Positions 25,461 to 52,611 of a stretch of 64,000 nt of DNA are shown piece after piece. The notes beneath the pieces are model-generated. The model searched no databases. It saw nothing but the letters and a program-made list of their open reading frames with translations, and was not told where the DNA came from. Made by a program: the position numbers and the translations under genes. The stretch is from positions 288,001 through 352,000 of the forward strand of contig CAVSOU010000008.1 in NCBI GenBank assembly GCA_963729625.1. The letters are read 5' to 3'. Source of the DNA: an uncultured bacterium. GTDB taxonomy: Bacteria; Chloroflexota; UBA5177; JANWHV01. Every line of letters begins with the position of its first letter. The first letter of the stretch is position 1.

Positions 25461-25566
25461 CACAGCGACATCGCGGCCTGACCACGACTACTTCATGGTC
25501 CGCGGACCTCTACCACGCATGAAAACCGTCCGAGAACCAGCCGGCCGCGGCCGGTGTATTGCGCAG

Positions 25567-25582
25567 CCCACAAGAGTGGGTG
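25567..25582. repeat. REP-like palindromic element, copy 4
   Basis: CCCACAAGAGTGGGTG between convergent genes, preceded by palindrome CCGGCCGCGGCCGG (25541-25554). Confidence 0.65.
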
Positions 25583-48820: not shown

Positions 48821-51130
48821 TTACTCAGTTCCGGCCAGAGCGCTGCCGTCACTCGATCCCGCTGCCTGCGAAGATTTGGCAGGCATGCTGGGATCAATCG
48901 CAGCGGCAGCCTGCGGCGATGCCGTGGGTGCGCCGGTGGCCGTTACCGTGATCGCCTCGCCGCCCACAGTGAGCTGAGCGGTTTGGCCTGGGAGCAGGTG
49001 GCCGGCCAGGATAGCATCCGCCAGGGCATCGTCCACGTGACCCTGGACGGCGCGCCGCAGCGGCCGGGCGCCGTATTCCTCGTTGTAGCCCTGGTCAATA
49101 AGGAAGCTGCGCACGTCGTCGCCGAGCTCCAGGCCGATTTGCTGTCCTGCCAGCCGCGTCCGTACCTCGGCCAGCATGAGATCCACGATCACATGCAGAT
49201 TCTCGCGAGTGAGCGAGCGGAACACCACAACCTGGTCGACACGGTTGAGGAACTCAGGACGGAAGGCGTGCTTCAAGCTTTCGAGGGCCTTTGACTCGAT
49301 AGCTTCCTGGCGATTGTCGTCATCGGCAACCTTGCCAGCCATGAATCCCAGCTTGCCCGCTTTGCGCAGTTCGGCCGAGCCGGCGTTGCTGGTCATGATC
49401 ACCACGGTGTTCTTGAAGTCCACGGAGCGTCCTTTGCCGTCGGTAAGACGGCCATCGTCCATGATTTGCAGCAGCGCGTTGAACACCTCCGGATGGGCCT
49501 TCTCAATCTCGTCGAAGAGGACAACACTGTATGGGCGGCGACGCACGCGCTCAGTCAACTGACCGCCCTCGTCGTAGCCGACGTAGCCGGGCGGGCTTCC
49601 GAAGAGGCGGGCGACGGTATGCGACTCCATGTACTCTGACATGTCCATGCGGATAATCGCATCCTCTCCGCCGAACAGCTCGGCGGCCAGCGCACGGGCG
49701 AGCTCGGTCTTGCCGACTCCCGTGGGCCCAAGGAACAGGAAGGAGCCGATCGGTCGGCGCGGATCCTTGAGACCGGCGCGCGAGCGCCGTATGGCGCGAC
49801 TGACCGCCGTGATTGCTTCACTCTGGCCTACCACGCGTCCACTAAGATCGTTCTCCAGGCTGATGAGGTTCGCTCGCTCGTGTTCGAGCATCTGACCTAC
49901 CGGGACGCCCGTCCAGCCTTCAATCACTTTGGCGATGAGCTCAGGCGACACTACCGGCGGCTCGCTCAGGCCCGCTTCGACGCGAGCGTTCTGGAGCCGT
50001 TCGACGGCCACCACCTCGTGCTGGCGAAGGGTTGCGGCTTTCTCATAGTCCTCTGCCAGCGCCGCCGCTTCCTTCTGCGCCTGGATCTCGGAGAGCTCCC
50101 GCTCAAGCTCGCGCACGTGCGCACCCTGGCCGGACTCATCGATTTCCAGCTTGAGGGCAGAAGCCGCCTCGTCTATCAGATCGATAGCCTTATCGGGAAG
50201 GAATCGATCGTTGATGTATCGATCGGCCAGGCTGGCCGCGGCTACGACCGTTTCGTCTGGAATCCGGACGCCGTGATGCGCCTCGTAGTGCGGCTTGACG
50301 GCGTGTAGCATCGGGATAGCCTCTTCAACCGACGGCTCGCCGACAAGCACGGGCTGGAACCGCCGCTCAAGCGCGGCGTCCTTCTCCACGTGCTTACGGT
50401 ATTCGTCGAGGGTGGTGGCGCCGATGACGCGCAGCTCACCACGCGCGAGCGCCGGCTTGAGCATATCGGATGCGCCGACGGCGCCCTCAGCGGCGCCTGC
50501 GCCGACGACCGTGTGCAGCTCGTCGATGAAGAGAATGATGTCGGGATTGGCGGTTGCCTCTTCGATCATCGACTTCACTCGCTCTTCAAACTGGCCGCGG
50601 AACATGGCGCCGGCCACCATGCCGCCGAGATTGAGGGAGATGATGCGCTTCCCGCGCAGGAAGTGCGGGCCAGTGCCGTCGTTGATACGACGCGCCAAAC
50701 TCTCCACTATAGCCGTCTTGCCCACCCCCGGCTCGCCAAGCAAGACGGGGTTATTCTTCTGGCGGCGGCCGAGCACGGTGATGACGCGGCGGGCTTCGCG
50801 CTCGCGCCCAGCCACGGGATCGAGCTTGCCCGTTGCGGCCTCAGCCGTCAGGTCTCGGCCAAAGCGATCGAGGGTAGGTGTCTTGCTCTGCGGCGCCTGG
50901 CGCTCGGCCGTGGTAGTGCCGGTCGTGGCCTGCGATCCACCGCCGGCGCGGCTCGCGAAGATGTTCCCGAGCGCGTTGCCACCCAGGGCGGAGCTGTCGT
51001 CGCTCAGAGCGCCCTGCATGATCTGCTCGGCGCACTGCTTGCAGAAGAAGTGCGACTCGCGCTTGCCATTGATGAAACCTTCCAGCCGTACCTGCGCTTC
51101 GCGGGTTTGGCAGTTTTCGCACTTTTGCAT
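48821..51130 (-). CDS. Clp ATPase, ClpE-like (N-terminal C4 zinc finger, two AAA modules, UVR middle domain)
   Basis: CENC...[49 protein letters not shown]; no Clp-N repeats. Confidence 0.92.
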
Positions 51131-51242
51131 GGTGTGTAGATTCCTCTCGGTTGATGCTCTCAGACGCCGTGCCTGGGAGCCGTGAAGCTGTACCGGCTGC
51201 GCGGCCGTAATGCCTCAGGTCGCTGCTTGTATGCCCACAGCT

Positions 51243-51665
51243 TCAGGGGTGGGGGCAGCGAGGACGTCCTGGGGGCCGCCGAGGGCCGACCTGCGCGTGA
51301 AAGGCGCCGAACAGGTCCTCTGCCGAAACCCCTTCACCTGCCGCTACCAGATACTCTCGAGTCCACAGTGTAGGAATGGTGGTAAGCTCCTTGAATTCCC
51401 GCCGCAGCACGCTCGACGAATGCGCCTTCAGTCCGCAGACGATGCTGTGAGGAGAGACGGTAGGCGGCGCTTCTACCATGAGGTAGACGAAAGCAGGCTG
51501 GATCCGCAGGCTGCGCAGTCCCACGTCCAGCGCCTCTGCCTTCTCCATGAGCAGATGCGCCAATCGTTCGGCGATACACCCAACCAGTACCGGCTTCAGT
51601 CGCATCGGCCCCCACGCAAAGTGGTAGACGAGCAGCGTGGGCCGGCAACTAATGTGTATATGCAT
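51243..51665 (-). CDS. IS200/IS605 TnpA (Y1) homolog lacking catalytic residues
   Basis: YHFAW.P...VL.G.IAERL...APPTVSP..IV..LK..SS..LRREF...PTLWTREY. HUH motif DHVH is replaced by AFVY and Y-x3-Q by A-x3-Q. Start 51665 or 51674. Confidence 0.8.
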   Translation of the reverse strand: MHIHISCRPTLLVYHFAWGPMRLKPVLVGCIAERLAHLLMEKAEALDVGLRSLRIQPAFVYLMVEAPPTVSPHSIVCGLKAHSSSVLRREFKELTTIPTLWTREYLVAAGEGVSAEDLFGAFHAQVGPRRPPGRPRCPHP

Positions 51666-51739
51666 CACTTCCATATACGCAATATACGCCTGTTTTGGAT
51701 TCACGCAAAGAGGTCGCGTCCGGGGCGGAGCCGCACCGG

Positions 51740-52218
51740 TCAAGACTGCTCACTGGCCAGCTGCACGTCCGCCGCTTCCTGTTGCAGCTTCTTGCCCAGT
51801 TCGTTGATCGTGACCTCCTCGTCCGTTTCGAGTGGCTCCTCCGGGACGGCGCTGTGGCGTAGCAAGCGGAGGATTTCCAGTTGCTGCTGGTTGATCTTGA
51901 AAAGGAAGTCCACTTCGCGCGCCTCGAGATCGTCGCGCAAATGGTCCTTCTGGGCCTGCCTGTTTTGGCTCATCATGATAATCGGCGCTGCGTACGCGGC
52001 TTGCGTGGAGAAGAGCAGGTTCAGCAAGATGAAGGGATACGCGTCCCAATGTTTATAAAGCCGATCAGGTTCAGCACGATCCAGAACGCGACGAACACGC
52101 TCTGCACGATAATGAAAGTCCAGGATCCCATGCCGTTGGCGATGTGGTCCGCCGCATGCTGGCCAAACGTGCTGGGTTCGTGAATATGGTCGCGCGAGTG
52201 AGCATGGCGTGCCGCCAT
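51740..52218 (-). pseudogene. DUF1003 membrane protein with one frameshift
   Basis: ADHIANGMGSWTFII in one frame and WDAYPFILLNLLFSTQAAYAAPIIMMSQNRQ in the next; one base missing near 52056. Confidence 0.88.
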
Positions 52219-52611
52219 TGGTGGCTCCTTCTTCTTATTCAACCGCCTGAGCGCTGCGACGCATTCTGCTATGGTGCTGCCTCCCGCAGCGTAGCATACG
52301 TGCTGAGCTTCCGCTGTGCTCCATGGAGAAGTTGGTGCTTGGTGGGGACGCGGCGACATTCTTCTGCACAGCGCGGGCCGGCCCGAGGGGCACGTTCGTT
52401 CAGCGCCTGCCGCATCTGGCACCTCTGCGTACCCGGCGCACGCCGTCGCGGTTGACCGCGTCCCTGCGCGGCATCGGCTGCGTGTACGGAGGCAGCCTCC
52501 AGGCCCACACGGACATGGACGCGCCCAAGGCGCTGCCCGACGCGCTTGTCGCTCTGGAGTCCTTGAACGGTGATTGCAACGGATGCGCGGATCCGGCCCG
52601 ATGTACTGCGG

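Follow-up and report, generated by a model that had tools for sequence, protein, structure and literature searches.

The transposases of IS200/IS605 insertion sequences (TnpA) are Y1 proteins of the HUH (histidine-hydrophobic-histidine) type, and according to a survey of such proteins from prokaryotes all of its sequences share the HuH and Y motifs (PMC6006769); the class 1 catalytic tyrosine is placed there on helix alpha-D, in the motif Y-x-x-x-Q. Host-kept derivatives of the IS200 lineage are known: REP-associated tyrosine transposases (RAYTs, or TnpA-REP; REP, repetitive extragenic palindrome) are described as single-copy and vertically inherited (PMC5581495, PMC8266576), share the IS200 catalytic centre (PMC5581495) and are flanked by the REPs that they mobilise. 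The other gene of these elements, tnpB, gave rise to TldR, a nuclease-dead, RNA-guided regulator of host genes (PMC10705468), and a review of recruited mobile elements names IS200/IS605, in the part that deals with this group, only for TnpB and IscB (PMC8987985). Here we describe TnpA*, a catalytically dead IS200-type Y1 protein encoded beside a ClpE-like Hsp100 ATPase in a 64,000-nt stretch of an uncultured Chloroflexota genome (GCA_963729625.1, contig CAVSOU010000008.1, positions 288,001 to 352,000; this whole stretch is referred to below as the window). We hypothesize, with a probability of about 0.5, that TnpA* is a domesticated DNA-binding autoregulator of the two-gene clp operon that it would form with the ClpE-like unfoldase. 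In a full-text literature search, with subscription journals and supplements outside its scope, neither a family of catalytically dead IS200 TnpA proteins nor an association of such a family with clp was found in print.

TnpA* is encoded in an uninterrupted minus-strand frame (51243..51743; 166 aa from a TTG codon). Since the N-termini of homologs start at an internal MEVMHIHIS, the gene likely occupies 51243..51674 on the minus strand (143 aa), with its ATG at 51674 and its stop codon at 51243-51245. An earlier note, made from the sequence of the window, had recognized the intact frame and its Y1 core, and matches to the Pfam Y1_Tnp model PF01797 (60 bits; cut-off 23) and to the NCBIfam IS200 model (60.6 bits; cut-off 55) bear this out; the start coordinate given there, 51170, falls in the intergenic spacer, outside the gene. 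An AlphaFold2 (AF2) model built with 47 sequences has a mean predicted local distance difference test score (pLDDT) of 84, blocks over residues 41-150 of the 166-residue frame averaging above 90 and the tail being of low confidence. All strong matches of TnpA* to solved structures are transposases of IS200, IS608 and ISDra2 (best Foldseek E = 1.7e-11; 2fyx superposes on the model with a template modelling score of 0.81 and a root-mean-square deviation of 2.0), and the profile match to 2ec2 reaches E = 5e-27. The protein thus has the fold and a length similar to those of ISHp608 (2vjv, 2a6m), Sulfolobus (2ec2) and ISDra2 (2xm3) TnpA, together with their YHxxW, K-x-SS-x-LR and LWxxxY blocks. Structural similarity to the solved RAYT 4er8 is far lower (E = 2.8e-4).

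What separates TnpA* from these relatives is the loss of the catalytic centre, which RAYTs keep. In profile alignments to 2ec2 and 2a6m, the place of the HUH motif (H-x-H) is taken by F62-V63-Y64 (QPAFVY; codons 51483..51491, minus strand), both histidines being replaced, as the earlier note had read. The catalytic tyrosine is gone as well: Tyr127 of IS608 aligns with F125 by HMMER and the tyrosine of the genome's canonical Y1 paralog with A124 by MAFFT (codons 51300..51305, minus strand, in helix alpha-D), and neither alignment puts a tyrosine there. TnpA* thus has neither the HUH motif nor the catalytic tyrosine by which an IS200/IS605 TnpA is recognized. It also shows none of the marks of a mobile element, such as several copies, end hairpins or a tnpB: the gene is single-copy, no tnpB stands beside it, and the adjoining downstream gene encodes the Clp ATPase.

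The second distinguishing feature is a basic C-terminal tail, PRRPPGRPR, which reads PRRPPGRPRCPHP and resembles an AT-hook (RRPPGRPR, R132-R139; codons 51258..51281, minus strand; placed by the ortholog alignment and the printed AT-hook consensus). Within it all of 24 orthologs keep R133, G136, R137 and P138, and the family consensus PRRPRGRPRK fits the printed AT-hook consensus at RPRGRP. That consensus is given as TPKRPRGRPKK, a GRP core flanked by Arg or Lys with Pro nearby, and the PRGRP core is reported to sit in the minor groove of an AATT-containing duplex (PMC11354804). A regulatory use of such a tail has been described for WhiB7, the promoter of which contains an AT-rich tract bound by the protein's C-terminal RGRP AT-hook (PMC10245118); WhiB7 differs in having an unrelated body, an Fe-S Wbl protein bound to sigma, and in being an activator.

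Forms with the same substitutions, which the earlier note had proposed to look for, constitute a family. A word-indexed search returned 60 relatives at 55-87% identity, mostly of about 143 aa. Among 301 Chloroflexota genomes, 25 contain one strong match each (E 3.5e-96 to 9.7e-29), reaching residues 138-143; weaker Y1 matches (E at or above 1.8e-23) mostly end near residue 115-133 and number up to 13 per genome (13 in G232 and in G264), and the five of them that were read (L028-L032) proved to be IS200 copies of the canonical kind. For 19 of the 25 carriers, no Y1 match other than the dead copy was obtained at E <= 1e-5. A second set, drawn from species representatives of GTDB, returned 80 loci, 64 of the dead type and 16 canonical or undetermined; as 22 of these 64 duplicate loci already in the first set, the two overlapping sets yield 67 distinct dead loci. 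The figure of 25 includes L007 from the unpublished genome G145 (counts of 25 of 25 become 24 of 24 when it is left out), and nothing else depends on this locus. Record titles of dead loci that give a sub-phylum clade mostly read Ktedonobacterales, Ktedonobacteria or 'uncultured Chloroflexia'; the others give only Chloroflexota or Chloroflexi, apart from seven other labels (six of a Proteobacteria type and one 'uncultured bacterium').

No dead locus has a histidine at either HUH position (25 rows of the first set and, by script, 63 of the 64 GTDB loci; L057 got no script call, and its printed frame is intact and reads R-V-Y). F-V-Y is shared by the window and the ortholog closest to it, L004, and elsewhere the triplet is L-V-Y, C-V-Y, R-V-Y or A-V-F; the tyrosine column varies among F, Y, H and L in the orthologs, and a GRP is encoded in the tail at every dead locus. 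Of the 16 non-dead loci, 14 keep H-V/I/L-H, as does the canonical paralog; L122 and L123 received no script call. A tree computed without L007, L057, L120, L122 and L123 separates 64 dead from 20 canonical rows by one branch (Shimodaira-Hasegawa-like approximate likelihood ratio test, 99). Among 1.84 billion cluster representatives, eight proteins matched at E <= 1e-30; the top four (185-241 bits) belong to the dead family and canonical forms score at most 130 bits. Because so few representatives match and the canonical forms drop so far, the family is, as judged from these scores, narrow. Some source annotations call its members 'transposase' or 'REP-associated tyrosine transposase'; the second label is not borne out by their sequences. 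Partial or distant parallels were seen in the search of protein representatives: in P0076 (145 aa), a remote Y1 relative, the HUH place is dead (A-V-Y) and the basic C-terminal tail lacks GRP, and P0066 (Y-V-H) and P0205 (H-V-S) have each lost one of the two HUH histidines.

TnpA* is a conserved host gene and not a decaying insertion sequence. The frame is intact at 66 of the 67 dead loci, L120 being frameshifted, and the five closest independent pairs give ratios of nonsynonymous to synonymous substitution (dN/dS; Nei-Gojobori) of 0.10, 0.09, 0.075, 0.045 and 0.084, which indicates strong purifying selection. Its position upstream of clp is retained across at least six family-level groups, with a median proportion of synonymous differences over all pairs of 0.71, i.e., at saturated synonymous sites. 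The idea of a functionless remnant has in its favour the missing catalytic residues and the single frameshift in 67 loci, and against it the 66 intact frames, dN/dS of 0.05-0.10, the retained position and the conservation of the added tail, and we regard it as scarcely credible. The earlier note had itself named, among the signs of simple decay, an absence of similarly substituted orthologs and dN/dS near 1; such orthologs exist and dN/dS is far below 1, so decay is rejected on those terms, and the exaptation proposed there, with catalysis lost and the fold kept, is upheld by the single-copy family, its low dN/dS and its strict synteny with clp.

The ClpE-like Hsp100 ATPase gene (48821..51130, minus strand; 769 aa, Pfam) is co-oriented with TnpA* and begins 112 nt downstream of it. 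The protein is composed of two AAA+ rings with a UVR middle motif, a KLGF loop, an element with a role in ClpP docking, and an N-terminal CxxC...CxxC zinc ribbon, in which C4, C7, C30 and C33 are invariant in 24 orthologs. Its Pfam matches are AAA, AAA_2, lid and D2-small, Clp_N not being among the 25 families shown of 31, and it scores under the ClpB, ClpA, ClpG and ClpK cut-offs. The label ClpE-like follows the published description of ClpE, in which the N-domain is a zinc domain like that of ClpX (PMC5506225): as read from its sequence, the neighbour combines a zinc N-domain with two AAA+ modules, and the name reflects this domain description rather than orthology to Firmicute ClpE.

This gene lies directly downstream of TnpA*, in the same orientation, at 25 of 25 loci of the first set and 64 of 64 dead GTDB loci (67/67 distinct loci), and at none of 16 loci with a canonical Y1 gene; in linked loci the Clp match begins at the first residue of the window's Clp protein. 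In the class to which the window's genome belongs, 16 genomes have both genes, five have neither and none has one alone. Pairwise identities of TnpA* correlate with those of the N-terminal 460 residues of Clp (r = 0.93; Mantel test, 0/2000), and the two genes have been passed on jointly. In the window the spacer occupies 51131..51242 (minus strand; 112 nt, with GAGAGGAA before the clp ATG); across the first set of loci it ranges from 0 to 173 nt, many spacers being 5-30 nt long with an AAAGGA-type ribosome site. At L017 (G136) the TnpA* stop codon overlaps the clp start (ATGAAATGTGA) and at L013 the spacer is 5 nt, an arrangement that suggests coupled translation at these two loci. No ORF (open reading frame) family recurs upstream in more than 9 of 54 loci; DUF1003, which the earlier note had correctly placed upstream of TnpA* on the same strand, is a neighbour only in the window's own genome.

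There is a weak hint that TnpA* is expressed. A 256-nt contig of a freshwater RNA library (98% identical, five differences) covers 51135-51390, extending from the 3' part of TnpA* across the spacer and stopping 5 nt short of the clp ATG without entering clp. A bioreactor RNA library contributes three 151-nt contigs, each with 3-7 differences, at 51278-51428, 51459-51609 and 51509-51628. These are assembled contigs of public runs that come from close relatives (97-98% identical in the two libraries) and may include DNA carry-over; the parts they leave uncovered are uninformative.

Upstream of TnpA* the orthologous loci carry dyads that are specific to this place. When loci are anchored on the YHF codon, a TATAAT-type hexamer is found about 60 nt upstream, and the stretch directly after it is conserved, coding or not. 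Within 450 nt upstream, 53 of 66 loci (L007 left out) contain a total of 84 units of the form GTAG-N15-xTACA; the search pattern permitted N11-19 between GTAG and xTACA, and all 84 units had exactly 15 nt. The units fall into 45 proximal ones, overlapping the -10 box, a Shine-Dalgarno-like AGGTGA and the start codon, and 39 distal ones in 38 loci, 75-78 bp farther upstream and non-coding. Their consensus is AATTnTGTAG(A/G)T-N11-(A/x)TCTACAnAATT with freely varying loops, and their outer AATT arms stand out at a locus GC content of 63%. Mean arm identity is 9/12 for distal units (12/12 in L120; 11/12 in L099 and L016) and 8/12 for proximal ones. In the alignment of 25 loci 70% of cells are paired between the arms, slid controls giving 27-50%; the dyad symmetry is real and is not accompanied by compensatory change.

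The AT-flanked form of the pattern matches only at the TnpA* locus in five of five genomes of 4.6-7.1 Mb (control, 0). Strict units number 0 in eight loci of a sister family (20.9 kb) and 14 in the window's 5.4-Mb genome. No further dyad sites outside the locus were found with the strict pattern in five genomes and the window's own, with a fuzzy pattern in its own clade or with the AT-flanked pattern. In an Rfam scan of 20 loci (E <= 1) the dyads were unmatched, the hits elsewhere being two tRNAs and one sub-threshold T-box; the latter, a T-box leader match at L012:2021-2246 (65.8 bits; gathering score 93), stands on the upstream side of the G016 TnpA* locus, in divergent orientation. In the window itself an own-clade variant of the proximal dyad, the imperfect ATTGCGTATATG-N9-CATATACACATT in minus-strand reading (51651..51683), holds the ATG, and its core pattern is unique in the 5.4-Mb genome. 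A -10-like hexamer TATATT (51681..51686, minus strand) lies 6 nt upstream of this ATG, at a place where most orthologous loci have TATAAT, and we infer a leaderless or short-leader TnpA* mRNA from this spacing. In the nearest ortholog, L004 (G190), two copies of a GC-rich hairpin unit (CCGACCGCAGTCGGAGGC) immediately precede the TnpA* promoter region, about 60-160 nt ahead of the YHF codon; the window lacks them.

A sister family, f22, offers a natural comparison. Orthologs of the ClpE-like protein (58-91% identical, matched from residue 1-2) are present in the 25 carriers and in 19 f22 genomes, the latter having no TnpA*; in the eight f22 loci read of the 19, tblastn gave no TnpA* relative over the 2.5 kb that precede the ClpE-like gene (E > 1). 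There the place of TnpA* and its dyads is taken by repeats resembling CIRCE (controlling inverted repeat of chaperone expression; at most 4 mismatches of 18 to the CIRCE consensus), such as TTAGCAATC-N9-GAGTGCTAG, found in all eight loci within about 470 nt of the clp start, around a TATAAT. Such repeats are absent from 23 of the 25 TnpA* loci; the other two, L026 and L027 of family f7, have one CIRCE-like repeat alongside TnpA*. A dedicated regulator and HrcA/CIRCE thus appear to have been swapped at one promoter, and the f7 arrangement may represent an intermediate state. The f7 loci have the most divergent TnpA*, with A-V-F at the HUH place and a long C-terminal extension; the CIRCE-like repeat covers the -35 box, and a short abutting palindrome, CTGTAACAG, replaces the spaced dyad. 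Several of the f22 loci (L038-L045) have two CIRCE-like repeats about 55 nt apart, flanking the TATAAT, and at L043 at least two ClpE-like copies stand in tandem on G030:C13, with a third on another contig.

Two known arrangements resemble this one. In HrcA/CIRCE control, too, a chaperone gene has an inverted repeat at its promoter, although both the repeat and the protein differ from the dyads and TnpA*. Of 21 genomes in the window's class, 20 have HrcA (PF01628); the exception is the window's own genome (G000; 87% complete), where no HrcA was found and where five CIRCE-like sites (at most 3 mismatches) lie on contigs C10, C11 and C16. The ctsR-mcsA-mcsB-clpC operon of Firmicutes is headed by a regulator and ends in an Hsp100 ATPase gene, CtsR being autoregulated (PMC5506225) and also controlling clpE in those bacteria. 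However, CtsR has no homology to TnpA* and controls a regulon, whereas the TnpA* dyads are found at one locus only; no match to the CtsR family was found in the window's genome.

Taken together, the regulatory role that the earlier note had put forward is the best-supported reading. TnpA* would be the first gene of a two-gene unit with the ClpE-like AAA+ unfoldase, would bind DNA sequence-specifically and would control its own operon, most likely as a repressor; repression is suggested because the dyad sits over the -10 box and the start. A TnpA* dimer, such as is seen in all solved TnpA proteins, would sit on dyads of the type AATTnTGTAGAT-N11-ATCTACAnAATT, one of them overlapping the -10 box, the transcript start and its own start codon, and a second one lying about 76 bp upstream in many lineages. 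Under protein-folding stress TnpA* would be released, perhaps because it is heat-labile or because the ClpE-like ATPase unfolds it (a guess that follows the CtsR analogy), and more ClpE-like protein would be made; TnpA* would thus do for one operon what CtsR or HrcA/CIRCE do elsewhere. More tentatively, and with less than even odds, we speculate that this may be the first HUH/Y1 transposase turned transcription factor, with the imperfect palindrome beside its own gene, which it would still recognize in the way that a transposase recognizes an element end, serving as the operator switch for a ClpE-like unfoldase; such a protein may read an extruded hairpin, as a way of directly sensing supercoiling or temperature, and may be removed by the ATPase under its control, closing a feedback loop.

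A number of observations weigh against the autoregulator proposal. The strict unit is absent in 13 of the 66 loci, and the pairing of the arms does not exceed column composition, since column shuffles give 68.7% and 76 of 500 reach 70%. Conservation of the proximal unit is partly due to the -10 box, AGGTGA, the ATG and the first codons. The window's own dyad is a different, weaker and single unit: as a hairpin it is weak (z = -0.5), and looser own-clade patterns match at control level (nine other sites, eight in the control). A consensus promoter scan gave no full sigma-70 site at the TnpA* start of the window, and the 25-aa tail remained without a Pfam AT_hook match (E <= 10). Binding to the predicted operator is inferred from sequence; duplex binding is an assumption, as solved TnpA proteins bind single-stranded hairpins, and the choice of repressor rather than activator is a guess from the operator position. 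Finally, the genomes are nearly all metagenome-assembled and mutually related, so the locus counts are not independent events.

Other functions have to be weighed against the same evidence. The strict gene pair at 67/67 loci, the 0-30 nt spacers at many of them, one stop/start overlap suggestive of coupled translation, and the co-varying divergence of the two proteins would also suit a protein partner of the ClpE-like ATPase, i.e., an adaptor, anti-adaptor, activity modulator or dedicated substrate whose DNA binding would be secondary or absent. Partner genes of this sort are familiar, clpS being made with clpA and mcsB with clpC. Translational coupling is the described basis on which McsB works with ClpC (PMC5506225). 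Such a partner would not be obligate, as 19 sister-family genomes keep the ClpE-like gene without TnpA*, and partnership leaves the locus-specific dyads and the AT-hook-type tail unexplained. A complex prediction for TnpA* (143 aa) and ClpE-like residues 1-460 from 24-row alignments scored 0.00 against a mark of 0.32 and weighs neither way. We consider this role unlikely as a replacement for the autoregulator, although the two are compatible, for example if the repressor were a ClpE substrate.

Still less probable, in our view, is that TnpA* has kept its ancestral mode of binding and recognizes the dyad as a folded single strand, be it a hairpin of the 5'-leader RNA, a DNA hairpin or a promoter cruciform, thereby controlling translation or mRNA fate or sensing supercoiling or temperature. 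Solved relatives do bind DNA hairpins in the deposited structures (2vjv, 2a6o, 2xm3), Salmonella IS200 is reported to be repressed by mRNA secondary structure (PMC4513863), and for five of eight units folded as single strands (seven distal ones and the proximal unit of L012), none of 200 shuffles folded as well (z from -4.1 to -8.0). The L012 stem pairs at 10/10, and in lineage f3 the right arm carries AGGA before the ATG and the left arm its complement. However, compensatory change does not rise above column make-up, many stems are weak or mismatched, an AT-hook suggests contact with the minor groove of a duplex, and, judging from the spacing, the left arm overlaps the -10 hexamer, so that a transcript would lose much of it. 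The earlier note had also considered a transposition inhibitor, possibly binding hairpins like those of a REP-like family, and the genome does hold one canonical Y1 gene and a small family of that kind, and the ancestor of TnpA* was a transposase binding element ends. Inhibition of resident IS200/IS605 elements in trans, or binding of REP-like hairpins, is nevertheless very improbable: TnpA* is the sole Y1 match (E <= 1e-5) in 19 of 25 carriers, REP-like copies lie neither within about 9 kb of the dead gene nor within about 5 kb of the canonical one, the dyads are unrelated to the REP-like unit and to canonical end hairpins, and the linkage to clp would go unexplained.

If the autoregulator proposal is right, both genes of IS200/IS605 have been recruited as nuclease-dead regulators, TnpB as TldR, guided by RNA, and TnpA, with no guide RNA evident, as the TnpA* family. 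The Y1 fold would then be a new DNA-binding fold among bacterial regulators, and the locus a testable case of a transposase-end interaction becoming a regulator-operator pair. The findings point to an unstudied protein-quality-control circuit in Ktedonobacteria-type Chloroflexota, and 'transposase' labels on this family mislead counts of mobile elements.

The remaining observations concern repeats and genes around the locus. An IS605-like end hairpin, which the earlier note had placed over the TnpA* stop codon, is not supported: the repeat there amounts to a 5-bp CCCAC/GTGGG stem, its DNA fold is at chance level (z = -1.8; 10 of 200 shuffles fold as well), and L004, the closest ortholog, has a different sequence at the stop with no such repeat visible by eye. 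The REP-like family with the hairpin CCCAC-AAGA-GTGGG, by comparison, is real, giving 28 strand matches in the genome (at most 2 mismatches of 17) against 0 for the reversed control, and its suggested link to TnpA* is not supported; copies in the window lie at 351-383, 1283-1304, 1419-1451 and 25561-25582. A derivation of the dyads from insertion-sequence ends is likewise not supported: the end hairpins of canonical Chloroflexota IS200/IS605 copies (L028-L032) are unlike them, and the four GTAG-N15-xTACA matches at canonical loci are all coding and without AT-rich arms, three of them in tnpA at VSS...KYI codons.

The only other Y1 gene of the genome (L001:1435-1881; G000:C8:455414-455767) lies outside the window and retains an intact H-V-H and a tyrosine in KAYLDRQ. 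It sits on a very long tree branch (7.7), no tnpB-sized ORF was found within 1.5 kb of it, and it may be RAYT-like or a solo element. Upstream of TnpA*, the DUF1003 gene (51740-52422, minus strand) is split over two frames by a frameshift near 52030-52075; its N-terminal part (52021-52422) ends in ...WIVLNLIGFINIGTRIPSSC followed by a stop codon, and the remainder continues in another frame (...WDAYPFILLNLLFSTQAAYAAPIIMMSQNRQ). A 450-nt DNA contig of run X1 is identical to the sequence containing this frameshift, and the run is possibly the source sample.

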